DNA of 32,000 nt from Candidatus Methanoperedens sp. GTDB lineage: Archaea > Halobacteriota > Methanosarcinia > Methanosarcinales > Methanoperedenaceae. Position numbers and translations under genes: made by a program. Under the pieces are notes generated by a model. The model worked only from the letters and a program-made list of their open reading frames with translations. It ran no database searches and was not told where the DNA came from. This document shows, one piece after another, positions 4,153 to 25,146 of the stretch; the stretch's first letter is position 1; every line of letters starts with the position of its first letter. The stretch spans positions 90,001 through 122,000 of the forward strand of contig JBGQBI010000002.1 in the NCBI GenBank assembly GCA_041494705.1, in the 5' to 3' direction.

Positions 4153-4165
4153 GTTTATACTCCTA

Positions 4166-5952: not shown

Positions 5953-7068
5953 CTAGATTAGCGGTTGTCCATTGTAGTTCATAAGCTTTATGGTTTTTTC
6001 ATTCAGACTTACGACTTCTTTTGGCAGCGGTACATACTGGAGACCTGAGGAATAACTCTGTCCATCATGTACTGCCCACCAGAGGAATTCAGCCAGTGCC
6101 TTACCTTTGGTCAGATCTGTCTGGTTTTTGTAGACAAGAAGATAGGTAAAGCTGCTAATGGGGTATGAATTGTCTCCCGGGGCATTCACAATACTTACGG
6201 ATGACCAGCTTGCGTCGCCTGAAGGCAGCGTTGTCACGGCTCCGGCAACGGCGTTTGCAGTTGTTTCAAGCGTGGGTTCGATGAATTTCCCTGCCTTGTT
6301 CTTGATGTACGCATAGGAGATGTTGTTCTGAAGCTTGGCGTAGATAAGTTCGACATACCCTATTGCATAGGTGTTCTGGTTTATGATACCTGCAACGCCC
6401 TCGTTGCCTTTCCCGCCAAGACCGACCGGCCAGTTGACTGATGTACCCTTTCCAACTTTTGATTTCCAGTCGGGGCTGACTGAGGAAAGATAATCTGTGA
6501 AGACGAAGGTTGTTCCGCTTCCATCGCTCCTGTGCGCCACGATAATATCCTTTGCCGGGAACTGGATGCCGGGATTAAGTGAAACTATCCGAGGGTCATT
6601 CCATTTTGTGATTTTCCCAAGGAAAATATCAGCAATTACATCGCCGCTCAAATTCATTCCCTTCGGTATGCCGGGAAGGTTATACGCTACAACCACTGCG
6701 CCTATGGTTTCGGGTATTTGCAGGATTCCTGTGAGATTTTTATATACCTGCTCTGAGAGAGGCGCATCACTTGCGCCAAAATTCACTGTTTTTGCTGTAA
6801 TTTGCTGTATTCCAGCACCGCTTCCTACGCTCTGATAATTAATCTGGATATTTGGATTTATTTTGCTATATTCCGAACTCCATTTTGATATCAGGGGATA
6901 TGGAAATGTTGCACCTGCGCCGTTTAAGGTTAAGGTTTCCGGGGCTTTTGTGGGCTGCACGGTTGCAGTCGGTTGCACTGTAGTCTGTACGGGAGGCTGC
7001 TGGCTTACACATCCAGCTACCAGCACGCCTGCCAGCATCAAAATTAGTATCGTCTTTAATCGATTCAT
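5953..7068 (-). CDS. pstS: Phosphate-binding protein PstS (lipobox-type anchor)
   Basis: 371 aa. Signal peptide ending in the lipobox-like LVAGC, then a Q/P/T-rich linker. PstS signatures GAGATFPYP, VGSGAGI, FGASDAPL, HRSDGSGTT. Confidence 0.9.
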   Translation of the reverse strand: MNRLKTILILMLAGVLVAGCVSQQPPVQTTVQPTATVQPTKAPETLTLNGAGATFPYPLISKWSSEYSKINPNIQINYQSVGSGAGIQQITAKTVNFGASDAPLSEQVYKNLTGILQIPETIGAVVVAYNLPGIPKGMNLSGDVIADIFLGKITKWNDPRIVSLNPGIQFPAKDIIVAHRSDGSGTTFVFTDYLSSVSPDWKSKVGKGTSVNWPVGLGGKGNEGVAGIINQNTYAIGYVELIYAKLQNNISYAYIKNKAGKFIEPTLETTANAVAGAVTTLPSGDASWSSVSIVNAPGDNSYPISSFTYLLVYKNQTDLTKGKALAEFLWWAVHDGQSYSSGLQYVPLPKEVVSLNEKTIKLMNYNGQPLI

Positions 7069-7205: not shown

Positions 7206-8087
7206 TCATGCGATAGCCGGTTCAATAGAATACGTTATTGCAGGAGGCATTAAACCTGACCTTAAACTGCAAAATTCTCTGATTTGTGCAAGGCTTTTAA
7301 GGGTATGGTCTCTTGTTGAGTTTTTAACTTCCAGGATCAAATTTCTTGTGTTTGTCTTTGATATGTTTTTAAATACTTCCCTGAAGTTTATTTTTCCAAG
7401 CCCCAGGGGAAGGTGGCGGTCTCCAAAAAGTGCTTCTTCAGACTCCAGAATTCCGAAGTTATCATGAAGATGCATCTGATGTATGTAGCCACCTAACTCA
7501 AAATAATCTTCCAGGGATAACCCGTATGCATTGGAGGCGATAAACGCATGACCTATATCCAGATTGATTTTTAAATTTTCAGAATCTACCATTTCAATTA
7601 TATGGTATATTTCCCCGGGGAACACACCAATTTTATTTCCCCCCTCCCTATCAAACAGGTTCTCTAAAAGAAGGGTGACGCCATATTCTTCGGCGAGGGT
7701 ACAGAGATGAATTAAATTACGTAAATTCGAATTAAGACACTTTTTTGAGCCGCTTTGCGAACCAGGATGAACAACTATGTATTCCGCTCCTATTTTTGCA
7801 GCAATCTCGATTACTTTTCCCATAACAATAAAATTTTTTTCATTATTAGTTGAAAAATCGATCTTTAGTCCTTCAATCCTGGAATCAATGTGCGGGGCAT
7901 GGATAGTAAATTCTGTGCCAAAAGATGAGGCAAGATATGCAGCCTTTGACAATAGTTCTTTTTCCTTTTGTTTGTCTAAAAAATCCACCCTGTCAAGACC
8001 AAGTTCAATAATTTCCACTTCACATGGATCTATGGCTCCTCCAAAATCTTTTATCTGAGGAGAGTTTATGCCTGTTTTTGTATTCAT
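7206..8087 (-). CDS. Sugar phosphate isomerase/epimerase-like protein (xylose isomerase-like TIM barrel family)
   Basis: 293 aa. By-eye metal-ligand pattern of the AP-endonuclease-2/xylose-isomerase-like TIM barrel family (IHAPH, VVHPG, LLLENL, DIGHA, HLHDN). Confidence 0.7.
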   Translation of the reverse strand: MNTKTGINSPQIKDFGGAIDPCEVEIIELGLDRVDFLDKQKEKELLSKAAYLASSFGTEFTIHAPHIDSRIEGLKIDFSTNNEKNFIVMGKVIEIAAKIGAEYIVVHPGSQSGSKKCLNSNLRNLIHLCTLAEEYGVTLLLENLFDREGGNKIGVFPGEIYHIIEMVDSENLKINLDIGHAFIASNAYGLSLEDYFELGGYIHQMHLHDNFGILESEEALFGDRHLPLGLGKINFREVFKNISKTNTRNLILEVKNSTRDHTLKSLAQIREFCSLRSGLMPPAITYSIEPAIA

Positions 8088-8122
8088 ATAGTATAGTTTT
8101 ACCCTAAATATTATATATTTTA

Positions 8123-8162
8123 TCTCAATAATCCATATATACTAAATAAAATCAGTATAAAT
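8123..8162. promoter_or_regulatory. Copy b of the recurrent intergenic motif, upstream of the isomerase-like gene
   Basis: tctcaataatccatatatactaaataaaatcagtataaat. It shares CAAnAATC(T/C)ATATA...ATAAAATCAGTA with copies a, c and d. It lies 36 nt upstream of ATG 8087. Confidence 0.55.
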
Positions 8163-8189
8163 ATGTCATCAAAAGAATTGTAACCACCT

Positions 8190-8597
8190 TCAAACCTTCT
8201 CCGGCGAGTACCTGACAGCCAGCACCCTTATCACTCCAAGCACAAACAACAGAGCTGAGAGGGCGAAAATAGTTTCGAATCCCAACGATTTGGAATAAAG
8301 CCCGACAGTGACCTCACGCATAGCTATTAAAATCGTGACGTCGGTTATGTCGGTGAGCTTGATTCTTTCATGTTTGGAATAGTCTGCAAAGGTCTTGAAG
8401 AACTCAATCACAATAAAAAGCGTGAGAACGTTAGTAACTATTTTGTTAAAACCGCCATCAAGTGAGTCTATCGCCACAGTGCGAATATCAAGTAATATCC
8501 GCAGCATTCCTGCAATGAGAGCCAACAACAGTACATACAGGACGATGGTAATAATGGAATCAGTAATTTTTTTGAAAAATTTTGGATGGTCAATCAT
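8190..8597 (-). CDS. PsiE-like (phosphate-starvation-inducible E family) small membrane protein
   Basis: 135 aa with 4 predicted TM helices. Length and layout resemble E. coli PsiE (136 aa), including a central LFIVIEFFKTF segment versus YFLYFEFIALIVKYF. This is a by-eye comparison only. Confidence 0.5.
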   Translation of the reverse strand: MIDHPKFFKKITDSIITIVLYVLLLALIAGMLRILLDIRTVAIDSLDGGFNKIVTNVLTLFIVIEFFKTFADYSKHERIKLTDITDVTILIAMREVTVGLYSKSLGFETIFALSALLFVLGVIRVLAVRYSPEKV

Positions 8598-8677
8598 TTA
8601 AATACCATCATCAGAGCGAGTAAGATAAGAAGCGCCATCAGAAAATATTCAATTTTATTGAAGCTGTTCATTTTCAT
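8594..8677 (-). CDS. 27-aa hydrophobic micro-ORF, translationally coupled on both sides
   Basis: My translation is MKMNSFNKIEYFLMALLILLALMMVFK. Its ATG overlaps the TGA of the 63-aa ORF (ATGA), and its TGA overlaps the ATG of the psiE-like gene (ATGA). It is below the ORF-track size cutoff. Confidence 0.3.
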   Translation of the reverse strand: MKMNSFNKIEYFLMALLILLALMMVFK

Positions 8678-8865
8678 TCAGGTTCGAGAGTTAATGCACA
8701 TTCGACATGTACTTTTCCTGGAGTTTTATACAGCCGCTTGATGCTCATCTCAGTTACCGTACCTATTACACCTCCGTCTTTTGCCACTACAATGCTTGCT
8801 GATAATCCTCTCCCGACCATGATCCCTGCTCTGATTGGCATGGGAACTTTAACCTCGTCACCCAT
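8674..8865 (-). CDS. Hypothetical 63-aa protein
   Basis: ORF-track entry. Tightly packed between two micro-ORFs in the same orientation. No family recognised. Confidence 0.35.
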   Translation of the reverse strand: MGDEVKVPMPIRAGIMVGRGLSASIVVAKDGGVIGTVTEMSIKRLYKTPGKVHVECALTLEPE

Positions 8866-8871
8866 AATGCC

Positions 8872-9006
8872 TCATTTGGCAGCGAATCCGCCGCGCATAA
8901 ATAAGTACAACTCCCTGTCTTCCTGCCTCATATTCAAAAGCTCCTCTTCGACCGGGTTGTATGTAATTGAGAGCGTTTTTCTCATAATTTGCTTATTTTC
9001 ATTCAT
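8872..9006 (-). CDS. Hypothetical 44-aa protein (first ORF of the psiE-like operon)
   Basis: My translation is MNENKQIMRKTLSITYNPVEEELLNMRQEDRELYLFMRGGFAAK. It ends 6 nt before the next ATG. Motif copy c lies 45 nt upstream. Possibly ribbon-helix-helix-like, but that is a guess. Confidence 0.25.
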   Translation of the reverse strand: MNENKQIMRKTLSITYNPVEEELLNMRQEDRELYLFMRGGFAAK

Positions 9007-9050
9007 TTCTATCACCAGATTGATAAATTCATTCAAAAGATATATAATTT

Positions 9051-9090
9051 ATCACAATAATCTATATATGCTACATAAAATCAGTAGAAA
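9051..9090. promoter_or_regulatory. Copy c of the recurrent intergenic motif
   Basis: atcacaataatctatatatgctacataaaatcagtagaaa. It lies upstream of the micro-ORF/psiE-like operon. Confidence 0.55.
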
Positions 9091-9127
9091 ATGCCTTTCT
9101 TTCAACTGATGTTGGCGTCGATAGCTA

Positions 9128-10231
9128 TCATATATACTGCGCAAGCACTTCTTCGTACAGTCTGTTCGCATTGTCCTTTGTTTTTGGCATAACAGGAAAT
9201 CCCTTATATTCCATTGCCCTCTCAACATCTTTAAGAAGATCTAATTCATACTGACTTTTTGAAGGAAACCATCTCTGCTTCTCGTAATACTCTGACAGGT
9301 ACTCCTGTTCGGTTTGACCGGGTGTTGGAGTAAAAAACCCGCGTTTCTTATCAAGCTCTGCCATCTCCATCATTGTCGTATAACCCGACCTGCTTATTAC
9401 GAACTTCGCGCGGTTCATTAGCACGTTCTTTTCTTCATGCGATACATACGATTTCACAGTAGTATCCCTGTCAAGCTTTTTTTCAAAATTGTCCTGGGGG
9501 CGTCCGAGAAGCACTACTTTCTTACCCGGGAGCTTCTGCACCTGCCGCAGCAATATTTCCTCAAGCTTACTTCTCTGAGGTTCAGGACCTGAAATACTGA
9601 CCAGGAAATCAAGGTCTTCGGGTACATCCATTTTATGAGAAGGACATAGAATTCCAGCATAGTATGCTTTCGCATTCGTTGTCCTTCGCGTCGACTGACA
9701 CAACTTCCCGCTAAGACAAACAGTATCAGGGTTATTATCTGGAATGATTATACGCTCGAATCTTTTATGAAAATATTCATTAATATACAGGGAAAACGTT
9801 TCAACAGGTTTAATGTAATAAGGAAGGCTGAAGCGCAACTGATGTGATATAAAAAAAGAAGGAATTTTATCTGAATACACACCAAGACGGCTATCACTTA
9901 TAACCATGTCGTACTTATTGTTTGATAGCAGGCTATCAGCAATTTTCTTTTCATCCGCGAGTGCCTTTGATAAATTCGGAATGCTTAAAGCAAATTTAGG
10001 CAAAAAAAATCTTGTTGAACTATATGGAGCCGGATAGTCCTGGAAGAAGATAAAGTGACAATCGGGGAACTCTTTTTTCAACATTTCAAGAGGACCGCCA
10101 CTGGTTGCAATGGTTACCTCATACCCATACTTCAGCAGTTCTCTGATAATCGGGGTAACCCGGCCAGCATGACCCAGTCCCCAGCTAAGCGGACTTATAA
10201 ACACGTGCGCCAATCTGAACCAACCTCTCAA
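9128..10231 (-). CDS. GT-B fold glycosyltransferase (GT1/GT28, MurG/MGT-like)
   Basis: 367 aa. N-terminal glycine-rich loop SWGLGHAGR and C-terminal SRSGYTTMMEMA helix resemble GT28/GT1 donor-binding motifs. By eye. Confidence 0.6.
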   Translation of the reverse strand: MRGWFRLAHVFISPLSWGLGHAGRVTPIIRELLKYGYEVTIATSGGPLEMLKKEFPDCHFIFFQDYPAPYSSTRFFLPKFALSIPNLSKALADEKKIADSLLSNNKYDMVISDSRLGVYSDKIPSFFISHQLRFSLPYYIKPVETFSLYINEYFHKRFERIIIPDNNPDTVCLSGKLCQSTRRTTNAKAYYAGILCPSHKMDVPEDLDFLVSISGPEPQRSKLEEILLRQVQKLPGKKVVLLGRPQDNFEKKLDRDTTVKSYVSHEEKNVLMNRAKFVISRSGYTTMMEMAELDKKRGFFTPTPGQTEQEYLSEYYEKQRWFPSKSQYELDLLKDVERAMEYKGFPVMPKTKDNANRLYEEVLAQYI

Positions 10232-11231: not shown

Positions 11232-11654
11232 CTATATAGATTTGGCGCAGAATTCTTCCTGTATCCTTGACTTTATCTCATCCCTGACCTTCCTGAATGC
11301 GGAAAGTATCTCGTTTTCAGACCCTTCCGTCTTTGCCGGGTCATTAAAACTCCAGTGTAAACGACGGGCAATGCCTGGGAAAACAGGGCAGGTTTCTCTT
11401 GCAGCATCGCATGTGGTTATAATGAAATCAAAACTCGTCCCTTGGAACTCCTCTACCGATTTTGACCAGTGCCCTGAAATATCAATGCCAATTTCTGCCA
11501 TGACCTTTATAGCCATAGGATTTACAACTGAAGGCCTGGTTCCCGCGCTGAATACATCAAACTCATCGCCCCTCAGATGCCACAAAATCCCTTCTGCCAT
11601 CTGGGAACGGCAGGAATTTCCTGTGCAGAGGAATAACACTTTTTTCTTTTTCAT
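11232..11654 (-). CDS. arsC: Arsenate reductase, LMW-PTPase family (thioredoxin-coupled type)
   Basis: 140 aa. P-loop CTGNSCRS near the N-terminus and a second cysteine pair in TTCDAARETCP, as in ArsC of the LMW-PTP class. Confidence 0.8.
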   Translation of the reverse strand: MKKKKVLFLCTGNSCRSQMAEGILWHLRGDEFDVFSAGTRPSVVNPMAIKVMAEIGIDISGHWSKSVEEFQGTSFDFIITTCDAARETCPVFPGIARRLHWSFNDPAKTEGSENEILSAFRKVRDEIKSRIQEEFCAKSI

Positions 11655-11709: not shown

Positions 11710-12468
11710 CTATATACCCAGTATAGAATAGATAAAATCGCCATAGAATGCAGCCGCGAAAAACCCTACTGTTATGGAAATCATAAACGGCAAGCCGGGG
11801 GTCACCCAGACCTCATCTTTAATTATACCCAGTTCTTCCAGATTCTTAAGCTCTTTGATTGTTTTCTCGTTAATTTCCACGCCGCCCGGCTTGAAACGGA
11901 ATTGATTCTTACCATCTGCCACTTCAAAATCCTGGATTAACCTGATATGTTTATTTGCAAGCTCTGAAATTTTAGTTTTATAACCTATGAAAATATATAC
12001 GGGATTATCAATATGCCAGCCCATTTTCGTTATATTAAATACTGCTAACCCGATGGGGACAATAATCGTCAACAGGGCTGCGTTGCCAAATACGCTGAGT
12101 GTGAAAATATCATACAGAGGTTTATTCAATGGAAGGGCATAGCCGAATGCCTGGAACGCCGGATAGGCAGGAAGGATTATCGACAGGACGATAAGAGATT
12201 TAGCGTCAGCCCCGCCGAATAAACCTAATTGAAAAGTGACATACACAAGCATGAACATGAATCCTGCCGAGATGAATAAGGTAAGGAGATATGATATGCC
12301 GTACTTTGAGGTATCATAAAGGATAAAAAAAATGCTGCCAGCAAGCATTACCAGCCACACTTTGTTGGTTACGCTGCGCTTTTTAATATCCGAATAACAT
12401 GCGTAAAGCAGAAACGGCGTGCAGAATAAAATCTTTAAAATATCGAGCATGCTCTTTTCCAGGGTCAA
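11710..12468 (-). CDS. Archaeal prepilin/preflagellin peptidase (peptidase family A24, FlaK/PibD/EppA-like)
   Basis: 252-aa polytopic protein with the two A24 aspartate motifs (CYSDIKKR and FGGADAKS) and a soluble insertion before the last TM helices. Confidence 0.85.
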   Translation of the reverse strand: MTLEKSMLDILKILFCTPFLLYACYSDIKKRSVTNKVWLVMLAGSIFFILYDTSKYGISYLLTLFISAGFMFMLVYVTFQLGLFGGADAKSLIVLSIILPAYPAFQAFGYALPLNKPLYDIFTLSVFGNAALLTIIVPIGLAVFNITKMGWHIDNPVYIFIGYKTKISELANKHIRLIQDFEVADGKNQFRFKPGGVEINEKTIKELKNLEELGIIKDEVWVTPGLPFMISITVGFFAAAFYGDFIYSILGI

Positions 12469-12475
12469 ATAAATT

Positions 12476-12658
12476 TTATTGTTTACAGACAGGAACCTTC
12501 GCTATAATCCTGGTTTCAGGAACCCTGTCCCACCTGTTGAAACTGCTGATATAAAGTATATCCTCATTGCGGCTCCTTTCGATAAACTGGACATCTCCTT
12601 CCTGGATTTCACCAGTTTCGAGTTTGAATTTTACTATGTCTCCTGTAGAATATTCCAT
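12476..12658 (-). CDS. Hypothetical 60-aa protein
   Basis: ORF-track entry 7 nt upstream of the peptidase gene on the same strand. No family recognised. Confidence 0.3.
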   Translation of the reverse strand: MEYSTGDIVKFKLETGEIQEGDVQFIERSRNEDILYISSFNRWDRVPETRIIAKVPVCKQ

Positions 12659-12696: not shown

Positions 12697-12732
12697 AAAA
12701 AAAAAAAGTATTATGAGGATTGCTCCTCATAA
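12697..12732 (-). terminator. Hairpin plus T11 terminator downstream of the pilin-PstS1 gene
   Basis: On the minus strand, TTATGAGGA-GCAA-TCCTCATAA (9-bp perfect stem, 12711-12732) is followed after 3 nt by eleven T (12697-12707). It begins 15 nt after the stop at 12747. Confidence 0.7.
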
Positions 12733-12746
12733 TTGAGTTTGTTTAT

Positions 12747-13862
12747 TTAAGGTCTGAAGAATCCTGTCTGCTCTACGATGGTCTGCCCGTCGTTGCTCAG
12801 TACATAGTCAAAGAATGCCTTCTCTGCGCCTGTCGGGACTCCCTGGCTGTAGTAGTAGAGGTCGCGTGCAAGTCCTTTGCCACTTACAGTGGTTACAGTC
12901 CTGCTTGCTGCATCGTAGGTATTAGCGCCTATACCCTTGGTGGTCTTGCTTGCCACAGTGCCATTCATCGAGGCTGCAATGTCAGCGGCGTTTCCATTAA
13001 CTCCGCCTGCTGCAAAGCCAACATCAACGAAGCCGATCGAATTTTTATTTGCTGCAATGTAGTCTCTTACTCCCTGGTTGCCCTGTGCCCCGGTTGCAGA
13101 TGAACCTGTTAGCTGTTTGGATGTAGTATCTTGCATACCAATCCATGCTGCAAAGGTATCTTCTGTTCCTGAGTCATCTGAGCGCTGGACTGTCGTTATA
13201 TTTTTTGCAAAAGTTCCAAGTTTAGTTCCATCTATTGCACCACTTACATACCCAGCTTTCAAATCAACGAAACTTATGTTAAGGATATAATTGGTTGGAT
13301 CATAGGCGGAAGTATTGCCGGGGATAATGTTTATTGCTTTAACATTATTAGTTCCATCGTTCAAATACCCTGCAAGTACAATCATGCCTGTTCCGATTTT
13401 TGTCTCATAGAGGAACGCATTGGCTCCTGCTGCCTGTATAACTGCACTCCCTCTGCCGTCGTACGATAAGCCTGTGGTTGTGTCTGTTGATGTACTATCC
13501 GGCCAGATGTCGGAGCTTGCTCCTACATCAACCTGTTTGTTGAAGACAAGCGCCCTGCCTGTTCCTGAGCCGCCGCCGCCGAGATGGATTGTTACTGATG
13601 GATACAGCTTTTCGAACGCTGCGATTTCAGCCTGTGTTATGGGTAATACTGTAGTACTGCCTTTGATTGCGAAATCTCCTGATACGTCAAGATGCTGACT
13701 TCCCACCTGACCTTCTGTATTCTTCTGCGCATTCTGGACAATCATGCCAATGCCCGCTGCTGCCACTGCTGCAATCACGATTAAAATCAGTGTTGCAATA
13801 GCAGGGGAAATGGCTTTAGAGTCCTGAAGGAATGCTTTTATTCCTTTAGTATTTATTCTCAT
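12747..13862 (-). CDS. PstS-family (PBP_like_2) phosphate-binding protein with archaeal class III (pilin-type) signal peptide
   Basis: I prefer ATG 13862 (GGAGG 7 nt upstream) over the ORF-track start 13931. N-terminus: MRINTKGIKAFLQDSKA|ISPAIATLILIVIAAVAAAG. The body carries PstS-type signatures GSTTVLP, GGGGSGTG, VGASSD, VQRSDDSGTED. Confidence 0.8.
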   Translation of the reverse strand: MRINTKGIKAFLQDSKAISPAIATLILIVIAAVAAAGIGMIVQNAQKNTEGQVGSQHLDVSGDFAIKGSTTVLPITQAEIAAFEKLYPSVTIHLGGGGSGTGRALVFNKQVDVGASSDIWPDSTSTDTTTGLSYDGRGSAVIQAAGANAFLYETKIGTGMIVLAGYLNDGTNNVKAINIIPGNTSAYDPTNYILNISFVDLKAGYVSGAIDGTKLGTFAKNITTVQRSDDSGTEDTFAAWIGMQDTTSKQLTGSSATGAQGNQGVRDYIAANKNSIGFVDVGFAAGGVNGNAADIAASMNGTVASKTTKGIGANTYDAASRTVTTVSGKGLARDLYYYSQGVPTGAEKAFFDYVLSNDGQTIVEQTGFFRP

Positions 13863-13965
13863 TTCTATCCTCCAATTTTTGGTTCGGTGACGCCCACCGG
13901 TATTGCCCAATGTATTATCATCTATCTTCAAATCGAAGTTTGGCGGACACGGATTTATAGCATCA

Positions 13966-14516
13966 CCAGATTACCTTAATTTCATAAACTATTTCAGGAT
14001 AAGCCTCATAAACTATAGAGAGTAATATAGTCTATTTTTATTCTTCAAAACAATGAAACCGGTGCCCTCCGGTTGGGGTCTCGAAGGGGCTGGGGGCACC
14101 GATTCATGGTTAATGAAGCCCTGCACCAGGGTAAAAAAAGTGAGATATGTTAAGGGCTTCATGTTTCTCCTACGGGTTGTGATTTAGCGGCGTGTGTATA
14201 GGCCGCCAGATTACTCTAATATCAGAAACTATTTCAGGATAATCCTCATAAACTATATAGAGCCATATAGTCTATTTTTTATTCTACGGGAGATGAAACC
14301 GGTGCCCATGATAGGTTCTTGAAGGCGGTTGTTGGGGCACCGTTTCATGGTTAATGAAGCCCTGCACTGAGGAAAAAAAGTACGAGATATTATGGGCTTC
14401 ATATTTCTCCTCTGTTTTTGGGCTCATCTGCTGTTTGAGCCACGGCCTATCCTAATATCAGGAACTATTTCAGGATAATCCTCATAAACTATATAGAGCC
14501 ATGTAGTCTATTTTTG
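13966..14516. repeat. Tandem repeat, period 240 bp, 2.3 copies (A 13966-14205, B 14206-14445, partial C 14446-14516)
   Basis: Each unit starts with a promoter-like A/T segment of about 64 nt (ctaatatcagRaactatttcaggataatcctcataaactatatagagccatRtagtctattttt). Copies B and C differ at 2 positions there. Copies A and B then carry two conserved inverted repeats: atgaaaccggtgccc...gggcaccgWttcat and atgaagccc...gggcttcat. Confidence 0.85.
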
Positions 14517-14565
14517 AAACTTTTTAATTTTTTCTGGGTAAATGAATCCAGATAAGGATAATCGA

Positions 14566-14635
14566 CCACAGAGCACACAGAGAGCACAGAGAATTGCCTC
14601 TTTTCTCTGTGTCCTCTGTGCTCTCTGTGGTTTTT
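14566..14635 (+). terminator. 28-bp imperfect hairpin built from CACAGAG-type units, followed by T5 (terminator-like on the plus strand)
   Basis: The left arm is ccacagagcacacagagagcacagagaa (14566-14593) and the right arm is ttctctgtgtcctctgtgctctctgtgg (14603-14630). They pair at 24 Watson-Crick positions plus 1 G-T out of 28. tttttc follows at 14631. Confidence 0.4.
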
Positions 14636-14683
14636 CAAACCAGAAGATAATAAAAAGTCTCCTATTTTTATCATGGGGAATAA

Positions 14684-14857
14684 TCAAACAGCACTCTTTT
14701 TGTGTGCAAGAAAAATCACGCCAAGCGCGCCCATTACGGGAAAAACTGCAAAAACCGCAGCCGGAAGATAATTTGATGGGGAATACCATGATACTGAAAC
14801 GGCGCTGTACAGTGCAAGAACCAAAAGCACAAGTGCACCCGCAAATTCGTTTCGCAT
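14684..14857 (-). CDS. Hypothetical 57-aa two-TM membrane peptide
   Basis: My translation is MRNEFAGALVLLVLALYSAVSVSWYSPSNYLPAAVFAVFPVMGALGVIFLAHKKSAV. It is below the ORF-track cutoff and has two clear hydrophobic helices. Confidence 0.3.
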   Translation of the reverse strand: MRNEFAGALVLLVLALYSAVSVSWYSPSNYLPAAVFAVFPVMGALGVIFLAHKKSAV

Positions 14858-15215
14858 AACATGATTTGGTTAAATCGCAAGATAAAGCCTTTCACTATAG
14901 AAACAATAGAGGTATAGAGAACATTATCCTTCTTTCAGCACCATATTCACGCAGAAAACGGTCAAATTGTGAGTTCTATCAAGTCTGCGTCAGTTCTGTA
15001 AGTCTGTAATAAATCGTCTGATATTAAAAAGGGGTTTTTAGTTTATTAAACTCACTGTGATAGATTCTTAAACCAAAGATACCAGGCATACACTACAACT
15101 AATATCGCAGCTATTATGAATACATAAACCCAAAAAATGATATTTTCAATCATTGAACCCTGTTACGATAACCTGAGGATAAATAAGGACTGAGTTTCTT
15201 CTTGATAAATAAAAA

Positions 15216-15467
15216 TCACTGAGCACCAACATTTTTCTTGTGCTCTGTTTGGCTGGCATTCTGAATTAAGGTAATCCACTTATTCTCACCTGCTTTGATT
15301 CTGCCAGCTTCGGCAGGGGTCTCATAATCAAATAATGACCGTTGATATTTGGGGATGGATTTTTTATGAGATTCGTATAAAATTCTGTGCCAGATAAGAT
15401 ATGTTTTTATTTCGTTCATTATGTCAAATAATTTACTAATACGTTTTTTTAACATATTTTCACCCAA
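15216..15467 (-). CDS. Hypothetical 83-aa protein
   Basis: ORF-track entry only. No family recognised. Confidence 0.25.
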   Translation of the reverse strand: MGENMLKKRISKLFDIMNEIKTYLIWHRILYESHKKSIPKYQRSLFDYETPAEAGRIKAGENKWITLIQNASQTEHKKNVGAQ

Positions 15468-15557
15468 CCATTTAAATCATAAAATGATATATAAAAGTAA
15501 TCTGTAGTGAGTATTGTTTCTATTGAGAATGTGATACATGAACAAAACGCCAAAGAG

Positions 15558-15992
15558 CTAACATTTTTTCTGCAAAATCGCCCATCCTGATAAAAATATA
15601 GCCATCATAATCGTTATTGCTGAAATTGCAAGGATAGCATTGGAGTAGGCTGCGTTCTTGAAATACCATGAAAAACCGCCAAAAGTATGTGCCAGTGAGA
15701 GCAGGATAAGTATGGCTGATGCAGGATAAAAGAGCTTTTCATCCCGGGAGAGCATTTTCAGGACAAAGTATGAAGCGGCAAAGGAGAAAATCACAGTAAA
15801 CACAAAGTAAGGTATCAATAAGTCGTGCCTGACTGCATATACCAGCAGCGGGCTGAATTCGTTCTGCACCAGGTTCTCCTTCGTGCCTGAAAGCCAGATG
15901 GTAAAAGAGTAGTCTATAATTGCCGACATTGCAAAAAAGAAAGGTACGGCTATCAGCAGCTTCCCTGGAATATCATTCTTTAACACCATCAA
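15558..15992 (-). CDS. Hypothetical 4-TM membrane protein
   Basis: 144 aa with four hydrophobic segments. It lies directly downstream of the pilin-PstS2 gene on the same strand. Confidence 0.5.
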   Translation of the reverse strand: MMVLKNDIPGKLLIAVPFFFAMSAIIDYSFTIWLSGTKENLVQNEFSPLLVYAVRHDLLIPYFVFTVIFSFAASYFVLKMLSRDEKLFYPASAILILLSLAHTFGGFSWYFKNAAYSNAILAISAITIMMAIFLSGWAILQKKC

Positions 15993-16040: not shown

Positions 16041-16994
16041 CTAATTAAATTCCCTCGTATAGCTTATGTATCCATTCTTCTCTATAATATCCTGTCCTTC
16101 AAATGACCTCGCCCACTTTATGAAGGAATCCACAAGTGAGGGATTACCTCTGGTTACAAAGTAGAGCGGATGGGCAAGCTCTAAGGGATAATAGGAATTG
16201 TTCACGTCACTGCTGGCGGCTGCCACCGTAAAATTGGAGTGGCTCATGTTTGTATATGTTACCCCGCTGTCTTCATTATAGAGATTTGCTATATTCACGC
16301 TCTGTCCACGTTTATCCTGGGAATCAACATAACCGTATTCTATAAATCCTATAGAACCGGGCATATTTTTCACAGCATCAAGCATCCCGGCGCTGCCTGT
16401 AACCGCAGTAATGCTTGAGTTGATTGAAGTATTTCCGATATACTGCAAAAATGCTCTCTCTGTGCCTGGAGAACCTGTCATTTGATATGCTGTGCATGTC
16501 TTATTTGTGTCATCGTAGCATCCTCGTAGTGTACTTTTACTAAAGTTGCCGACCGGGCCATTGACTATAATCACAATTCCCGAAGTGCCAAGCTTTTGAG
16601 CAACGAGGTCCGGGTATTTTCCCATCTCATCCGGAGAAGGCAATCTATCTGTGACTCCTATATCTGCTATGCCGGTACCCACCTCACCAATGGAAACATT
16701 CGAAGTCATATTCAATGCCGCACTCGCTTGTAACTGGAGCATCACGCCGAGACTTTTATCATTATAAGCATTCACCAGAGGTAAAATGGCAGGGTAGGCA
16801 AGGTCTGAACTTATGATATTTATCTTTATAGATGTACGATCTGCACTGTTACTCTTGCCTGCTACCTTATCGGTCTGGGAGTTCATATTCTGCATCATGC
16901 CAGAGAGAAATGTCACGCTTCCAGCCACCACCATGATAAGCATCAGAGAGGCGACCACCGGGGATACTGCATTTGTGTCTTTAATAATCTTCAT
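16041..16994 (-). CDS. Divergent PstS/PBP_like_2-fold protein with class III (pilin-type) signal peptide
   Basis: 317 aa. N-terminus: MKIIKDTNA|VSPVVASLMLIMVVAG. The body aligns by eye to the PBP_like_2 layout (IADIGVTDRLPSPDEM, GIVIIVNG, TGSPGTERAFLQYIG, IGFIEYGYV). The canonical GST/GSGxG anion-binding motifs are replaced (ISSDLAYP, QASAAL). Confidence 0.7.
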   Translation of the reverse strand: MKIIKDTNAVSPVVASLMLIMVVAGSVTFLSGMMQNMNSQTDKVAGKSNSADRTSIKINIISSDLAYPAILPLVNAYNDKSLGVMLQLQASAALNMTSNVSIGEVGTGIADIGVTDRLPSPDEMGKYPDLVAQKLGTSGIVIIVNGPVGNFSKSTLRGCYDDTNKTCTAYQMTGSPGTERAFLQYIGNTSINSSITAVTGSAGMLDAVKNMPGSIGFIEYGYVDSQDKRGQSVNIANLYNEDSGVTYTNMSHSNFTVAAASSDVNNSYYPLELAHPLYFVTRGNPSLVDSFIKWARSFEGQDIIEKNGYISYTREFN

Positions 16995-17103: not shown

Positions 17104-18474
17104 TCAGTCACCTCCCGAATAGGCGGGCATGTTGCCGGTAGCCGTTTGTCCTGACGTCTTCCCTGAGAGCCCCAATATTTTCAGGAGTTTCGTTGGAAGG
17201 TTTTTCAGTTCTGCCATTAGCGATTCGTAGAACGCTGGCGTGTCAGAAGTATTTTTGGATTTTTCGATTGGGGGAGCGGGAGAAGTCTCAGCAGGGGCGA
17301 TATGAACTTCCGTGGGAACAGCCTTTGCAAATGTTATCTGTACAGGATTTGATATGCCTGAACCTGTAATAGCTTGCGTTTTTCCTTCGGGGTCGTAGCA
17401 TGACCTGTACTCATCAAATGTGAAGTTAGCCGGAGGCAGTGAGATATTACCAGATAGATTATTTATTTTTAATACATAACTCTGATTATAAGACGTCTCT
17501 GGTTGCAGGACAATGCTGAAATTCCGATCACCGCGAAGCATCTCCATACCAGGAACAAAAGAATCCCATACTTTTACCGAAGCTGCCCTGCTCCCGTTGT
17601 TTTTTACGCTCAAGTTTATCGTAACATTGCCTTCCTTCTCCATATCAACGGTTTTTGATAAAATAATATCAGAAGAGCGTAAAATGAAACTTAGATTGCC
17701 GGTGGATAAATTATATGTTTTATTATACCTGCCTATGTAAAGCATTGCAGGTGGCAGGCTGTATTCCGCTCCCGCGACTGGCTTAAGAGGCTTGATTTTA
17801 TAGGCGGTCTGCCACATCTCACCGCTGTGCAGGGATATGCTCCACTTCAAATCATGTGGTTCTGATACAAAACCGTCTCCAACACTGTCTCCCACCCCGA
17901 TATTCGAAAAATTTAAATTTCCAATGCTTTCAACAGTTATTGTAATAGGGATGAACTGGTTGCAAGGATTTATATTAGCCTCTGCGGGCACGGTCTTGGT
18001 GATCGTCAGGTTTTTTGCAATATCAAAATCACTTTCATTCATTTTTATCAGTATTTTAAGCTCTGCATAAGGCGTGGGTATGTGATAACCTGTGACAACA
18101 TCCTGCGCAATTATCCTGAGTGAGCTTTCATCATCTTCATATGAGGTTTCATTAAAAAAATCGGCGCCGTCGATGGTAATGTTTTTCTCTGCTAACACAG
18201 CGTCCAGTATATGATTACTATCCTTGTATATCTTTAAAAATACCCAGTCATCACACCCAAAAATTCGCCTATTAACGCCATCGGTTTCAGTTTTACATTT
18301 TTCTGGATTTTCTTCTACGGTTCCGGGCCTGAAATCCACCGCTGTTATATTATAATTGTAAAAACTGACGCTTTCACCCCAATTGAGACGTACATCATGT
18401 TCTTCCCAGTCAGATGCCGCTCCTGCCACTGCCAATATATTCAGCCCGATAATAAGCAACAGAATAGCCCTCAT
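17104..18474 (-). CDS. Secreted, sequon-rich cell-surface protein (beta-sandwich/CARDB- or DUF11-like segment)
   Basis: I prefer ATG 18474 (MRAILLLIIGLNILAVAGAAS..., Sec-type signal peptide). The ORF-track start 18552 would overlap the upstream gene. About 18 N-x-S/T sequons by eye. The segment ILSKTVDMEKEGNVTINLSVKNNGSRAASVKVWDSFVPG looks CARDB/DUF11-like. Confidence 0.65.
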   Translation of the reverse strand: MRAILLLIIGLNILAVAGAASDWEEHDVRLNWGESVSFYNYNITAVDFRPGTVEENPEKCKTETDGVNRRIFGCDDWVFLKIYKDSNHILDAVLAEKNITIDGADFFNETSYEDDESSLRIIAQDVVTGYHIPTPYAELKILIKMNESDFDIAKNLTITKTVPAEANINPCNQFIPITITVESIGNLNFSNIGVGDSVGDGFVSEPHDLKWSISLHSGEMWQTAYKIKPLKPVAGAEYSLPPAMLYIGRYNKTYNLSTGNLSFILRSSDIILSKTVDMEKEGNVTINLSVKNNGSRAASVKVWDSFVPGMEMLRGDRNFSIVLQPETSYNQSYVLKINNLSGNISLPPANFTFDEYRSCYDPEGKTQAITGSGISNPVQITFAKAVPTEVHIAPAETSPAPPIEKSKNTSDTPAFYESLMAELKNLPTKLLKILGLSGKTSGQTATGNMPAYSGGD

Positions 18475-18529
18475 TGTCTGAAAATAGAATAAAGCCCTAT
18501 TAGGTTTTTTTGTATATAGTGTATATAAT

Positions 18530-19540
18530 CTATATACTTTTAGAGAAGTCAATGGCTAACTCAGCGATGTTTGCAGCATAATCCCCGATTCTTTTCACGC
18601 TGTCTGCTATGAGCCCTAAGGACATGACAGCGTCAGGACTTAAAGTGGTTGCCTGGTTTCTGACTATATGCAAATCCTCGCCTATTTTTTTATGTTCTTC
18701 AATAACCCTGTTTGCAAGCTCTACATTGCATTTTGTAAAAGAAACAACCGAATCATTGACGAGTTTATGTGATATGGTACAAATCTTAACGATCTCATCG
18801 AGCATGCCTTGAGGAATTTTTTCACCTGATTCCAGTATTATACCGGCGATCTTACCCGCATGGTCTGACATACGCTCTAAATGGTCGCTTGCCAGCCTGT
18901 AGTAGAAGGCTCCTATCAACCCCAGTTCACTCTTTTCTGATATCCTTGAATGGAGTAAAATATCCATGAACTGTTTTGATATCAATAGATGGAGGCGGTC
19001 AATCTCATCATCCTGCCTTACGACTTCAGAGGCAATGGAAACTTCCTTCGTTTTCATTGCCTTGATGGTGTTGTCAAGCATCCACTGCACTTTTATATGC
19101 ATGCGCCGAAAGCTCATATCGATAGGCATATCTCCCGGATTCAAGATATCCTGAATAACTATTCTCTCGTGCGTTTCATCGATGATTTCAATGCCTATCA
19201 ATTTTTTGACGATAGCTGTTATATCTTTTTTCTGCTCATGTGTGATATTTTTGGCTTTAAGTTCAATCACACGATACCCGGCAACGTAGGTGGCTATTAT
19301 ATCTCTTATCAGCGGCTCGCCCACCCTTCCATCTATGGTTAAGGTCTTTGGACCCTGAGGCGCAAAACTGCCGTTTGAAGTTAAAAGAAGAGTACCATCC
19401 TCCTGCGGATGCATGTGAACAAGGGAACCGGCGGTTATCCCGGTACTGACAGCCCATTTCTTGGGAAGAGAGACGACATATGTCGATTTCCCTGTTATCT
19501 GGACTTTTCTTATTTCTGCGTTTGTCTTTTTAATTTTCAT
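18530..19540 (-). CDS. AbrB/SpoVT-domain plus PhoU-domain transcriptional regulator (paralog 1)
   Basis: 336 aa. The N-terminal looped-hinge-helix-type segment is RKVQITGKSTYVVSLPKKWAVSTGITAGSLVHMH. The C-terminal part has two PhoU repeats (DDEIDRLH...LERMSDHAGKIA and IGEDLH...VKRIGDYAANIAE). Confidence 0.85.
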   Translation of the reverse strand: MKIKKTNAEIRKVQITGKSTYVVSLPKKWAVSTGITAGSLVHMHPQEDGTLLLTSNGSFAPQGPKTLTIDGRVGEPLIRDIIATYVAGYRVIELKAKNITHEQKKDITAIVKKLIGIEIIDETHERIVIQDILNPGDMPIDMSFRRMHIKVQWMLDNTIKAMKTKEVSIASEVVRQDDEIDRLHLLISKQFMDILLHSRISEKSELGLIGAFYYRLASDHLERMSDHAGKIAGIILESGEKIPQGMLDEIVKICTISHKLVNDSVVSFTKCNVELANRVIEEHKKIGEDLHIVRNQATTLSPDAVMSLGLIADSVKRIGDYAANIAELAIDFSKSI

Positions 19541-24231: not shown

Positions 24232-24387
24232 CTTCGTATCTCTGCCATATTTATACCGTTCTTCTCTACTGAAATGCTATCATGCAGGAGCTTTTAGAAC
24301 GGTTAATTAATTAACCCCTATAGTCTAAATACATCTATATACTCTATAATAGGATGCTTTATTGGGTCGAAGGGAAAAAAGTAACGT

Positions 24388-25146
24388 GTGAAGCTGCTTG
24401 AAGATGAGTCCGGGCTATCTGTAATAGTTGGAACACTGCTGTTGATACTTATCGTGGTAGCTTCGGCATCTGCCCTTGCTCTCATGGTGAACGAAGCACA
24501 GAAAAAAGAGATGGAGCAGAGGAGCCTTCGCGCTGCTGTGGAAAGTGAGAACTTAAAGATTCTTTCGTTGGCTCTCAATGATTCGGATGGCGACGGATAC
24601 TGGAATACCATGATGATAACTGTTGTGAATCTGAATACCGAGGAATCACGGATTGTTAGCGTCAATATTAATGACATGAATGCAGCAAACTACACAGATG
24701 AAGTAAAATTATACAATTTCCAGAACCAATTCCCTGTACCATCCGCAAGAAGCAGGCAGATATTCTTGAACCTTACCTCCAACTTTACCTCCCGTCTTAA
24801 CATTTCCAAGAATGATCCCATCCGGGTAATCCTGTTTACCAGCCTGACAAACAATTTTGAGCGTGTCTTTCTACCACCTGTGCCCATCATAAAAGTGAAT
24901 GTTGGATCTGAACAAATTGGAGCGTTCTATGATGTGCTCACCCTGGACGGTTCGGATTCTTTTGACCGTGAAGGCACGATTATCAAATACCAGTGGTTGG
25001 TCAGCAATGGCACAATTCTGGGCACTCCAAGCGGACAGAAAGCGAGGATGAATTTCAACCTGAGCAACACAGGTAAGTTCCAGGTCAACCTTAACGTGAC
25101 AGACAGCAACGGGATGTTGGGTTCTACCGGTTGGGAATCTCCATAA
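24388..25146 (+). CDS. Pilin-like protein (class III signal peptide) with C-terminal PKD domain
   Basis: GTG start. N-terminus: MKLLEDESG|LSVIVGTLLLILIVVASASALA. The C-terminal LTLDGSDSFDREGTIIKYQW...GKFQVNLNVTDSNG matches the PKD-domain pattern. Confidence 0.7.
   Translation: MKLLEDESGLSVIVGTLLLILIVVASASALALMVNEAQKKEMEQRSLRAAVESENLKILSLALNDSDGDGYWNTMMITVVNLNTEESRIVSVNINDMNAANYTDEVKLYNFQNQFPVPSARSRQIFLNLTSNFTSRLNISKNDPIRVILFTSLTNNFERVFLPPVPIIKVNVGSEQIGAFYDVLTLDGSDSFDREGTIIKYQWLVSNGTILGTPSGQKARMNFNLSNTGKFQVNLNVTDSNGMLGSTGWESP

Follow-up and report, generated by a model that had tools for sequence, protein, structure and literature searches.

A PstS-fold protein with a pilin-type N terminus encoded in a conserved, phosphate-linked type IV filament gene cluster of Methanoperedens-like archaea

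The window considered here, a stretch of DNA of 32,000 nucleotides analysed over its whole length, carries a gene whose product, referred to below as PstS-pilin, joins a pilin-like N terminus to a PstS-fold domain. The gene and its immediate signals are laid out as follows, a slash marking a cleavage site here and throughout.

12747-13862, minus strand: PstS-pilin gene, 371 aa (ORF and translation, Pfam/NCBIfam, family alignment, AF2/Foldseek)
13862-13812, minus: leader, codons 1-17, predicted cleavage KA/IS
13811-13728, minus: hydrophobic helix, codons 18-45
Codons 46-60, minus: flexible linker
13682-12750, minus: PstS-fold domain, codons 61-371
12699-12733, minus: terminator-like hairpin with a 10-bp stem (12733-12710), then a T-run, just 3' of the stop codon
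13966-14515, minus: tandem non-coding array, unit of about 236-240 nt, two full copies and a final 74-nt partial copy (repeat search)

The open reading frame was judged to be real, and the start codon at 13862 given in the initial annotation is supported, so that the leader is truly N-terminal: of 58 relatives of full length, 50 start 11-14 residues ahead of a conserved D-x-x-A-[VI]-S-P motif, and the in-frame extension 5' of this start is not conserved as protein. A TTG start at 13931, which would yield a product of 394 aa with a 40-residue leader, was rejected on the latter ground and for the length of that leader. The SD sequence and the terminator that had been ascribed to the gene are both present, the former as GGAGG at 13873-13869, 6 nt 5' of the ATG. 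A scan for σ70 promoters gave counts at background level and is not informative for an archaeon.

The region upstream had been described as unusually rich in repeats, which is accurate as to the repeats themselves, but these form a conserved non-coding array rather than noise, with nucleotide conservation of 71-82% across eight other loci. Each unit opens with a dyad/TATA-like box, ATAGACTATA-N8-TATAGTTTAT, and alignment and folding reveal three hairpins per full copy; the last, partial copy stops about 100 nt ahead of the PstS-pilin ATG. Such a box also occurs at 24320-24347, upstream of a further pilin-leader gene described below. Small ORFs running from a conserved AGGAG-N6-ATGAAGCCC within the 240-nt units were considered as coding and rejected, since neither length nor frame is conserved over 15 units. 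Matches in an Rfam scan of 13800-15600 were confined to sub-threshold, chance-like hairpins, and no known RNA family is therefore recognized there.

Signals of the class III (pilin) type are defined by a FlaFind-type rule as a short charged leader, a [KRDE]-[GA] cleavage motif, and a run of 20 or more hydrophobic residues, all at the very N terminus. All three elements are found in PstS-pilin, the N terminus of which reads MRINTKGIKAFLQDSKA/ISPAIATLILIVIAAVAAAGIGMIV: a 17-residue class III-type leader (..FLQDSKA/ISP..) followed by a hydrophobic helix of 25-28 residues. The leader and helix reported in the initial annotation are thus borne out, and they are nearly invariant among 21 aligned relatives. 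Little or no variation is seen at Phe-11, Leu-12, and Asp-14 or across residues 17-36, Ala-17, Ser-19, and Pro-20 being invariant, and residues 18-45 show a mean pairwise identity of 85% compared with 40-53% in the globular parts of the family. The Pilin_N model (PF07790) matches 18 of the 21 family members below threshold (best E value 6.7e-4); PstS-pilin itself scores 14.0 bits against this model (cutoff 25.2) and 14.6 bits against arch_flag_Nterm (TIGR02537, cutoff 20), below the cutoff in both cases. Within the window, a D-x-x-[AG]/[VIL]-S motif occurs in exactly three proteins, all of them members of the gene cluster to which PstS-pilin belongs.

The remainder of the protein has the fold of PstS. 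It passes the Pfam model PBP_like_2 (60.8 bits, cutoff 27) and falls far below the cutoffs of the curated NCBIfam PstS models TIGR02136 (85.8 bits, cutoff 206.6) and TIGR00975 (45.6 bits, cutoff 205). The structure prediction and the alignment to characterized PstS proteins that had been proposed as checks were both carried out. The AF2 model has a mean pLDDT of 85, with values of around 90 in the globular domain, and its best 42 Foldseek matches in the PDB are all phosphate-binding proteins, with E values down to 1.6e-16. Large insertions occupy residues 120-197 and 286-330, approximately. A low-confidence linker joins the helix to the domain, which, unlike the arrangement in classical pilins, is not packed against it. 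The reference for the phosphate ligands was a Clostridium perfringens short-form PstS of known structure, 4Q8R (Ser-11, Thr-12, Ser-13, Ser-41, Ser-59, Arg-125, Ser-129, Gly-130, and Thr-131), and the equivalent codons lie as follows.

13164-13184, minus: Arg-227-Ser-Asp-229-Asp-Ser-231-Gly-232-Thr-233, the Arg/Asp/Ser-Gly-Thr phosphate loop (mapping onto 4Q8R, 70 relatives)
13658-13650, minus: Ser-69-Thr-70-Thr-71 (mapping onto 4Q8R)
13568-13566, minus: Ser-99 (mapping onto 4Q8R)
13517-13512, minus: Ser-116-Ser-117 (mapping onto 4Q8R)

All nine ligands have identical or Ser/Thr-conservative counterparts in PstS-pilin, namely Ser-69, Thr-70, Thr-71, Ser-99, Ser-116/Ser-117, Arg-227, Ser-231, Gly-232, and Thr-233, to which Asp-229 can be added. 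Across about 70 relatives that are otherwise 40-60% identical, these positions are kept in 71-100% of the sequences having a residue there (50-69 of 66-70), Ser-231 being replaced by Gly in 19 of 70. The initial annotation was therefore right that the phosphate-binding residues are retained; its pairing of GASSD with the GASDA motif of the operon PstS does not hold for the Asp. Asp-118 varies among the 70 relatives (Asp in 29, Ser in 24, Ala in 10, Glu in 5), which rules out its equivalence to Asp-56 of the Escherichia coli protein and assigns the site to the Ser type of short-form PstS. The pattern supports the view that PstS-pilin keeps a phosphate-binding site of this kind and would bind the anion.

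A different oxyanion (arsenate, phosphite, or sulfate) might be bound instead, or binding might have been lost in favor of a purely structural role. The low scores against curated PstS models and the large insertions could be read in this way, as could the poor discrimination against arsenate by the Ser-type site of C. perfringens PBP-1 (PMC5381212), the presence of an ArsC-like gene as a conserved neighbor of the cluster, and the clear loss of the site in a sister paralog (16041-16994). We nevertheless regard it as very unlikely: the gene is the fastest-evolving of its cluster, yet the nine ligands and the Arg-Asp pair are strongly constrained, all the close structural matches bind phosphate, and the genomic context is phosphate-specific throughout. 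That context comprises the following features.

2739-7068, minus: pstS (lipobox LVAGC)-pstC-pstA-pstB-phoU operon, a conventional phosphate importer (Pfam/NCBIfam, motifs)
11710-12468, minus: A24 prepilin/preflagellin peptidase (Peptidase_A24 and Arc_PepC_II, Pfam 53.2 and 89.3 bits)
12476-12658, minus: conserved 60-aa cytoplasmic-looking ORF, between the PstS-pilin and peptidase genes
14684-14857, minus: 57-aa protein with two hydrophobic segments, 65-82% identical in five loci
15558-15992, minus: 144-aa multi-pass membrane protein, conserved in the cluster
16041-16994, minus: second pilin-leader PBP paralog, 317 aa, leader ..KDTNA/VSPVVASLMLIMVVAG (hhalign, TIGR02136)
17104-18552, minus: secreted DUF11/CLIPPER-like surface protein with a Sec-type signal
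18530-19540, minus: fusion of an AbrB/MazE-like DNA-binding domain with two PhoU domains, its gene running divergently to that of the ATPase
19708-21519, plus: type IV filament assembly ATPase (T2SSE; FlaI/ArlI-like; Pfam 129 bits)
21523-23363, plus: two T2SSF genes (21523-22383 and 22380-23363), jointly a split FlaJ/TadC-like platform
24388-25146, plus: third pilin-leader protein, 252 aa, ..EDESG/LSVIVGTLLLILIVVAS (arch_flag_Nterm 19.6 bits, cutoff 20)
25246-26280, plus: second AbrB-PhoU regulator

The pst operon lies 5.7 kb downstream of the PstS-pilin gene, on the same strand, and does not include it. Its own PstS (5953-7068) has the lipobox LVAGC and E. coli-type motifs, and is distinct from PstS-pilin, as had been stated from the outset. 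The window also encodes PsiE and a PHP hydrolase in addition to the ArsC-like protein, and sister loci carry an alkaline phosphatase or PPK2.

Two genes downstream of PstS-pilin, the A24 peptidase gene probably starts at ATG 12450, and the candidate catalytic Asp residues of its product lie in YSDIKKR and GGADAK; the protein scores 72 bits against the FlaK model, below the cutoff of 330. The intervening 60-aa ORF, for which a Pfam/NCBIfam search returned no family match, is 56-92% identical and in the same position in seven loci, with extra copies in L001 and L013. The second PBP paralog belongs to the PstS fold family (hhalign probability 99.1%, E value 3.9e-19; 42.9 bits against TIGR02136) and its site is degenerate, with Ser-Thr-Thr replaced by Asp-Leu-Ala, Arg by Met, Asp by Gly, and Ser by Pro. 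The first AbrB-PhoU protein, a candidate phosphate-responsive regulator, is 84-89% identical across loci.

A scan of GTDB genomes with the family alignment gave at least 599 matches, the N-terminal peptide patterns being too common, with six confirmed loci among the matches listed; relatives were gathered by exact look-ups and a metagenome scan in its place. The synteny of the PstS-pilin cluster recurs in Methanoperedens-like genomes. The peptidase, the ATPase, and the two platform genes keep it in loci L001, L003, L005, L012, and L013 and are rearranged in L011, and the peptidase gene adjoins that of PstS-pilin in L001, L002, L003, L005, L012, and L013. More distant pilin-leader PstS proteins, from Methanosarcina acetivorans C2A (AAM06466.1), an Altiarchaeia MAG, and many metagenome contigs, are encoded in a second, independent architecture, in the order pstS-pstC-pstA-T2SSE-T2SSF-T2SSF, with overlapping genes that make up one operon; that of M. 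acetivorans C2A lies at about 3.841-3.849 Mb of AE010299.1. In 39 of 41 such loci pstC lies directly downstream of pstS, and filament genes are present in 12 of the 13 that extend over 15 kb or more. They share homologues of the window's ATPase (about 50% identity), platform, third pilin, AbrB-PhoU protein, and 144-aa membrane protein, the last of which also adjoins AbrB-PhoU in the M. acetivorans-type loci.

This linkage bears on the simplest account of the N terminus, in which the hydrophobic stretch, cleaved or not, serves only to anchor a phosphate binder in the membrane and the nearby filament genes build an unrelated pilus. A terminal hydrophobic segment anchors many archaeal binding proteins (PMC3387779), the pilin scores of PstS-pilin are below threshold, and, because a flexible, low-confidence linker joins domain to helix in the AF2 model, the domain could be merely tethered. 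A plain anchor, however, has no need of an invariant Phe-11, Leu-12, Asp-14, Ala-17, Ser-19, and Pro-20, nor would it account for an association with peptidase, ATPase, and platform genes that is kept in two gene orders, in Methanoperedens-like genomes, Methanosarcina, and Altiarchaeia, and that in the second extends to overlapping genes of a single operon. We consider mere tethering unlikely.

The interpretation we favor, with a probability of roughly two in three, is that the gene encodes a phosphate binder of the short-form type, made as a pilin-like precursor, and belongs to a type IV filament system, Pho-linked and akin to the bindosome, by which such binders are displayed. The A24 peptidase would remove the 17-residue leader, cutting after Lys-16-Ala-17, and the FlaI-like ATPase and split FlaJ/TadC-like platform would then handle the mature protein by its invariant N-terminal helix, together with the degenerate PBP-pilin paralog and the third pilin. 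The PstS domains may in this way be carried clear of the membrane by a filament or a short pseudopilus, a phosphate "bindosome," capturing phosphate through a Ser-type site that would operate without the low-barrier Asp bond and handing it to the lipoprotein PstS and PstCAB importer encoded nearby. Phosphate supply probably governs expression by way of the AbrB-PhoU regulators of the cluster. Since a binder built as a pilin sits amid its own peptidase, motor, and phosphate regulators, phosphate traps are probably presented by the cell on a structure resembling a type IV filament; the word "filament" is a guess, because even the bindosome of Sulfolobus has never been seen as a structure. The suggestion made in the initial annotation, that one genome displays binders for the same ligand in two different ways, gains considerable support from the conserved cluster of dedicated peptidase, ATPase, and platform genes, from the two further pilin-leader proteins and the PhoU-domain regulators, and from the distant loci in which a pilin-leader pstS shares an operon with pstCA and filament genes.

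A displayed PstS domain need not feed an importer. It could act as an adhesin in a pilus subunit, attaching the cell to phosphate-bearing surfaces or partners under phosphate starvation. There is a precedent in Pseudomonas aeruginosa, where adherence is mediated by PstS-rich appendages that appear when phosphate is limiting and require the Pho-regulated Hxc type II secretion system (PMC2242829). The surface of PstS-pilin evolves fast, as in an exposed adhesin or pilin, and its gene is monocistronic with a strong terminator, as are those of major pilins. In solved PstS proteins, however, the two lobes enclose the phosphate completely (PMC5381212), an arrangement suited to the free anion and not to a surface, and the permease genes pstCA that share an operon with the distant relatives point to uptake. 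Adhesion as the principal role is, in our view, improbable. A broader form of the display hypothesis, which we advance only speculatively and think more doubtful than probable, is that several archaeal lineages (Methanoperedens-like, Methanosarcina, and Altiarchaeia) possess a dedicated, phosphate-regulated type IV filament with PstS-domain subunits, an extracellular phosphate-harvesting fiber. The fiber would be in physical connection with a PstCA permease, which would share a transcript with the filament ATPase and platform and for which there is no dedicated pstB in the vicinity.

A preprint of 2026 has argued from signal-peptide screens that binding proteins with class III signals are widespread, usually lying beside transporters and not filament genes, and its main text contains no phosphate case (10.64898/2026.04.22.720090). 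A literature search found no paper in which an archaeal PstS was connected with class III signals or with pili, with the possible exception of an earlier mention among the neighborhoods of Makarova et al. 2016. What the present locus adds is the gathering of a phosphate binder, peptidase, assembly motor, accessory pilins, and phosphate regulators in one conserved cluster. In the relatives, the single operon of binder, permease, and filament genes ties an ABC importer to a type IV filament system more closely, at the genomic level, than any case so far. The system is also a testable one, with a well-understood ligand, a simple expected inducing condition in phosphate starvation, and a tractable host in M. 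acetivorans C2A, where the presence of the related operon makes a genetic test of assembly-dependent uptake feasible. What a bindosome is, and what it does, has long been an open question, and with these at hand it becomes directly testable. The finding bears, in addition, on the competition for phosphate by methane-cycling archaea.

PstS-pilin can be compared with several known systems. With the short-form PstS proteins of the TIGR02136 subfamily (C. perfringens PBP-1, 4Q8R/4GD5, and Streptococcus pneumoniae PstS1, 4EXL) it shares the fold (Foldseek E values of 1e-16 to 1e-15, TM scores of 0.68-0.77 relative to the target) and the nine-residue, Ser-type ligand set that dispenses with the low-barrier Asp bond. 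It differs from them in having a pilin-type leader in place of a Sec or lipoprotein signal, about 100 extra residues in its two insertions, a score well short of the subfamily cutoff, and a gene that lies outside any pst operon. Archaeal pilins of the Pilin_N family resemble it in their short charged leader, [AG]/[VI]-S-P cleavage-site-like motif, and hydrophobic helix of about 25 residues, and in the proximity of peptidase, ATPase, and platform genes; unlike these, it scores below the pilin thresholds, and where they have a small head it has an entire solute-binding protein of two lobes, attached through a linker. The P. aeruginosa appendages likewise place a phosphate binder on extracellular structures under phosphate limitation with the involvement of a member of the type IV filament superfamily. 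They are bacterial, however, and their PstS, which bears an ordinary signal peptide, is secreted cargo rather than a pilin-like subunit; the role shown for them is in adhesion and virulence.

The closest parallel is the sugar bindosome (Bas) of the Sulfolobales; in no other case has the handling of binding proteins by type IV filament machinery been studied. In Saccharolobus (Sulfolobus) solfataricus, the class III-signal sugar binders are GlcS, AraS, and TreS (PMC4858521; bioRxiv 10.64898/2026.04.22.720090). Both systems feature the substrate-binding protein of an ABC importer with a class III leader and hydrophobic helix. In both, its assembly or localization is attributed, as a proposal, to a membrane platform and a type IV filament ATPase, and its processing to an A24 peptidase, in the present case by prediction. 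The ligand in the present case is phosphate and not sugars, and the lineage is euryarchaeotal (Methanosarcinales-like). The binder genes of Sulfolobus sit with their transporters, far from basEF (bioRxiv 10.64898/2026.04.22.720090), whereas PstS-pilin is encoded inside the filament cluster and its distant relatives in one operon with permease and filament genes. The machinery also differs: the ATPase scores higher against the FlaI model (455 bits, cutoff 550) than against that of BasE (226 bits, cutoff 1000), below the cutoff in both cases, and the match to BasF is similarly weak (31.8 bits, cutoff 1300), the FlaJ model scoring higher, such that orthologues of BasE and BasF were not recognized in the cluster. 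Its platform is split into two genes, the place of BasABC-like small pilins is taken by the degenerate PBP-pilin paralog and the 252-aa pilin, and, unlike the Sulfolobus system, it brings with it a peptidase and PhoU-type regulators of its own.

The gene for PstS-pilin, a phosphate-binding-type protein with a pilin-type leader, has the start and flanking signals that the initial annotation had given it, namely its own Shine-Dalgarno sequence and a hairpin with a T run as terminator.

13862 (ATG) to 12747 (stop), minus strand: PstS-pilin ORF, 371 aa
13873-13869, minus strand: GGAGG, 6 nt ahead of the ATG
12733-12710, minus strand: 10-bp hairpin, then T run, directly 3' of the stop

A longer start at TTG 13931 is mechanically possible. 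It was ruled out because 50 of 58 full-length relatives in the family alignment start 11-14 residues ahead of a conserved D-x-x-A-[VI]-S-P motif, and because the extension upstream of ATG 13862 is conserved in relatives as a nucleotide block, not as protein. The start at ATG 13862 therefore stands, and the leader is not internal.

The N terminus reads MRINTKGIKAFLQDSKA up to the predicted cleavage site and ISPAIATLILIVIAAVAAAGIGMIV after it. In an alignment of 21 relatives with a mean column identity of 41%, F11, L12, D14, and almost all of residues 17-36 are invariant, and pairwise identity among 58 full-length members is 85% over residues 18-45 as against 40-53% in the globular segments. The Pfam model of the archaeal pilin N terminus scores PstS-pilin below threshold (14 bits versus 25.2), and a weak sub-threshold match recurs in 18 of the 21 relatives; the near-invariance and this recurrence uphold the class III leader and hydrophobic helix originally described. 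The invariance of the leader also weakens the proposal that PstS-pilin is a plain membrane tether. A six-frame motif scan found pilin-type N termini in exactly three proteins of the window, all in one gene cluster, the other two being as follows.

16994..16041, minus strand: 317-aa pilin-leader protein, leader ending KDTNA and followed by VSPVVASLMLIMVVAG
24388..25146, plus strand: 252-aa pilin, leader ending EDESG and followed by LSVIVGTLLLILIVVAS; 19.6 bits on the archaellin/pilin N-terminal model (cutoff 20)

The remainder of PstS-pilin matches PBP_like_2 with 60.8 bits and falls far under the cutoffs of curated PstS models (85.8 versus 206.6 and 45.6 versus 205). AlphaFold2, run on the family alignment, gave a model with a mean pLDDT of 85 and values of ∼90 or higher across most of the globular part; every one of its 42 top matches in a Foldseek search of the PDB is a phosphate-binding protein. 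The best of these are short-form proteins from C. perfringens (4GD5/4Q8R), S. pneumoniae (4EXL), and V. cholerae (1TWY); two insertions, at ∼120-197 (β-rich) and 286-330, explain the extra length of PstS-pilin. In the C. perfringens PBP-1 crystal structure, there are nine ligands (S11, T12, S13, S41, S59, R125, S129, G130, and T131), of which Ser59 stands where E. coli-type proteins have the Asp of the low-barrier hydrogen bond, and the price is a lower phosphate/arsenate discrimination (PMC5381212). HMMER alignments to 4Q8R, made with the single protein and with the family profile, supply equivalents for all nine: S69, T70, T71, S99, S116 or S117, R227, S231, G232, and T233. At S116/S117, the two alignments are offset by one position, both residues being conserved, and the partner of R227 is D229. 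Among 70 relatives (denominators of 66-70 by position), the counts are S69, 66/66; T70, 61 T and 4 S; T71, 64/66; S99, 68/69; S116 and S117, 67/69 each; R227, 69/70; D229, 69/70; S231, 50 S and 19 G; G232, 68/70; and T233, 59 T and 9 S.

The initial annotation had set GASSD against GASDA in the phosphate signature, which would equate the Asp of GASSD with Asp56 of E. coli. This residue, D118, is variable in the relatives (D 29, S 24, A 10, E 5), which rules out the equivalence; the remainder of the signature is retained. Because D118 varies and the other ligand positions are conserved, the alignments indicate that the binding signature is real and is that of a Ser-type short-form PstS. A change of ligand is made less probable by the constraint at all ligand positions.

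Around PstS-pilin lie genes of probable filament assembly and of phosphate uptake.

12476-12658, minus strand: conserved 60-aa ORF, downstream of PstS-pilin
11710-12468, minus strand: A24 prepilin peptidase with archaeal C-terminal domain, downstream
11232-11654, minus strand: ArsC-like reductase, thioredoxin-type (TIGR02691 151 bits, cutoff 174)
Downstream, minus strand: PHP hydrolase, glycosyltransferase-like gene, PsiE, TIM-barrel phosphodiesterase-like gene, and pstSCAB-phoU
Upstream: conserved 57-aa membrane protein, 144-aa membrane protein, 317-aa pilin-leader protein, secreted DUF11-like protein, and AbrB-PhoU fusion regulator
Upstream, divergent: FlaI-like ATPase and two T2SSF platform genes
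Farther upstream: 252-aa pilin and second AbrB-PhoU gene

The PstS of the pst operon (7068..5953) carries a lipobox (MNRLKTILILMLAGVLVAGC) and E. coli-type motifs and reaches 402 bits with the PstS equivalog model, in keeping with its description as lipobox-anchored. Homology of the 317-aa protein to PstS-pilin extends over the full length and takes in the leader (hhalign 99.1%, E 3.9e-19). Its site is lost, with DLA in place of STT, Met of Arg, Gly of Asp, and Pro of Ser. This degenerate paralog (16041-16994) exceeds the intact binder in conservation across genomes (72-78%) and is possibly a structural or adaptor subunit. The 60-aa ORF has no family match and always lies between the pilin and peptidase genes, sometimes in several copies (extra copies at 13080-13244 in homologous locus L001, and at 14290-14460 and 17587-17757 in L013). 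A 286-aa P-loop protein, also without a family match (23371-24231, minus strand), comes after the second platform gene and on the other strand, at the place that a KaiC-like ATPase takes in M. acetivorans-type loci. The ArsC-like gene is a conserved neighbor of the peptidase and pilin genes and also lies beside a distant operon (L014); we speculate that it fits arsenate leaking in via a poorly discriminating Ser-type phosphate site.

The window sequence was matched in one 2.07-Mb metagenome contig and one MAG. The same gene order is found in L001, L003, L005, L012, and L013, from Candidatus Methanoperedens MAGs and related uncultured archaea, with alkaline phosphatase or PPK2 additionally present in sister loci. 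Identity to the window proteins is 60-92% for the cluster neighbors and only 41-61% for PstS-pilin. Judged from these alignments, a surface that changes fast while helix and ligand site stay fixed would be the pattern expected of an exposed functional subunit. The most divergent allele (41%) is that of L013. There (7723-10001), a PIN/MazE toxin-antitoxin pair and ∼1.6 kb lie between the PstS-pilin allele and the conserved promoter array and 5' leader, both of which are present, as if the pilin gene had been exchanged as a cassette. In L011, an 88-kb contig, the cluster is rearranged: its genes all lie on a single strand, a GH16 domain is fused to the 252-aa pilin, and upstream there are an IS200/605 TnpB-like gene and ∼20 small ORFs that lack annotation. 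The system may be carried here by a mobile or extrachromosomal element. AbrB-PhoU is a single 336-aa ORF in the window and in a JGI contig (L008) and two ORFs (204 and 129 aa) in an NCBI MAG (L007, 4323-5333), likely an assembly or frameshift difference.

The upstream region, initially described as repeat-laden, does contain repeats, which are organized as an array of conserved non-coding units.

13966-14515, minus strand: 236-240-nt unit in tandem, present twice in full and, at the end, as a 74-nt partial copy

Arrays of one to three full units, with 71-82% nucleotide identity, precede the homologous gene in eight other loci (L001-L006, L012, and L013), while the pilin protein downstream is far less conserved. 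Each unit opens with ATAGACTATA-N8-TATAGTTTAT. The array has three copies of this pattern, and a further copy, with three mismatches, lies upstream of the 252-aa pilin gene, against a chance expectation of no matches; the 317-aa gene, too, is preceded by a TCTATATAG box. The pattern might represent a TATA box plus operator. In full units, it is followed by three hairpins, for which 92.5% of cells in 15 units are paired, versus 32-51% with partners slid, and nine pairs show compensatory changes, versus 4.3 in shuffles. No conservation was found for small ORFs inside the units, and an Rfam scan of the upstream region gave no family match. Each unit is possibly a copy of the pilin promoter that drives a short structured RNA. 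Directly 3' of the 57-aa ORF lies a long inverted repeat (14565-14631), whose 29-nt arms are rich in CACAGAG; it is conserved in part in L001 and L003 and is probably a terminator between the transcript of that ORF and the array.

The next tier of database matches (∼100 bits) also has pilin-type N termini, for example NDKA followed by VSPVVATLVLVVVAIIGAAAVG in AAM06466.1 of Methanosarcina acetivorans. In M. acetivorans C2A, pilin-leader pstS, pstC, pstA, T2SSE, T2SSF, and T2SSF overlap as one operon. Upstream of them lie AbrB-PhoU and a gene homologous to that of the 144-aa membrane protein; genes homologous to that of the 252-aa pilin follow downstream.

AE010299.1, 3,831,261-3,852,259: M. 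acetivorans C2A operon locus (L096)

The same order occurs in one Altiarchaeia MAG and one Methanosarcinales-like contig; in all, the operon is seen in L096, L014, L015, and ∼40 metagenome loci. In a survey of 80 metagenome loci with pilin-leader pstS, pstC is directly 3' in 39 of the 41 with enough downstream sequence; among the 13 loci of at least 15 kb, 12 have filament genes and only one has pstB. The window cluster shares homologues with these loci, including an ATPase ∼50% identical to theirs, and so looks like a derivative of the pstCA-type system. It lacks the pstCA pair (a canonical pst operon lies close by), and the binder would have been duplicated and a dedicated peptidase added. 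This twofold conservation of linkage again tells against a plain tether. An adhesive pilus subunit, for which the Hxc-dependent PstS-rich appendages of P. aeruginosa (PMC2242829) are the comparison, is likewise weakened, as the anion is buried in solved PstS proteins and permease genes are co-operonic in the distant relatives.

The best-supported reading of these analyses is that the cluster is a bindosome for phosphate, the bindosome being the Sulfolobales system of class III-signal sugar-binding proteins and type IV filament machinery (BasABCEF). What the analyses demonstrate is the protein's architecture, its fold, the conservation of its site, and the linkage of the genes. In the mechanism that we infer, the A24 peptidase of the cluster would cut PstS-pilin after Ala17, and the FlaI-like ATPase and split platform would assemble or localize the mature protein with its degenerate paralog and the third pilin. 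The displayed PstS domains would catch phosphate through the Ser-type site and pass it on to the lipoprotein PstS/PstCAB importer, with the AbrB-PhoU regulators governing expression.

Class III-signal binding proteins have been proposed to "functionalize" type IV filaments across archaea (2026 preprint, bioRxiv 10.64898/2026.04.22.720090). The literature searched gives no account of a pilin-type PstS or its operon; subscription papers or supplementary material might contain one. The bindosome is the nearest known system, from which that of the window differs in ligand and lineage, in machinery that is FlaI/FlaJ-like and split rather than BasEF, and in its accessory pilins, dedicated peptidase, and PhoU-type regulators. 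The foremost difference, and mainly what would surprise specialists, is the direct genomic coupling, at the level of the operon, of binder, permease, and filament genes, which has the value of being testable in a model methanogen.
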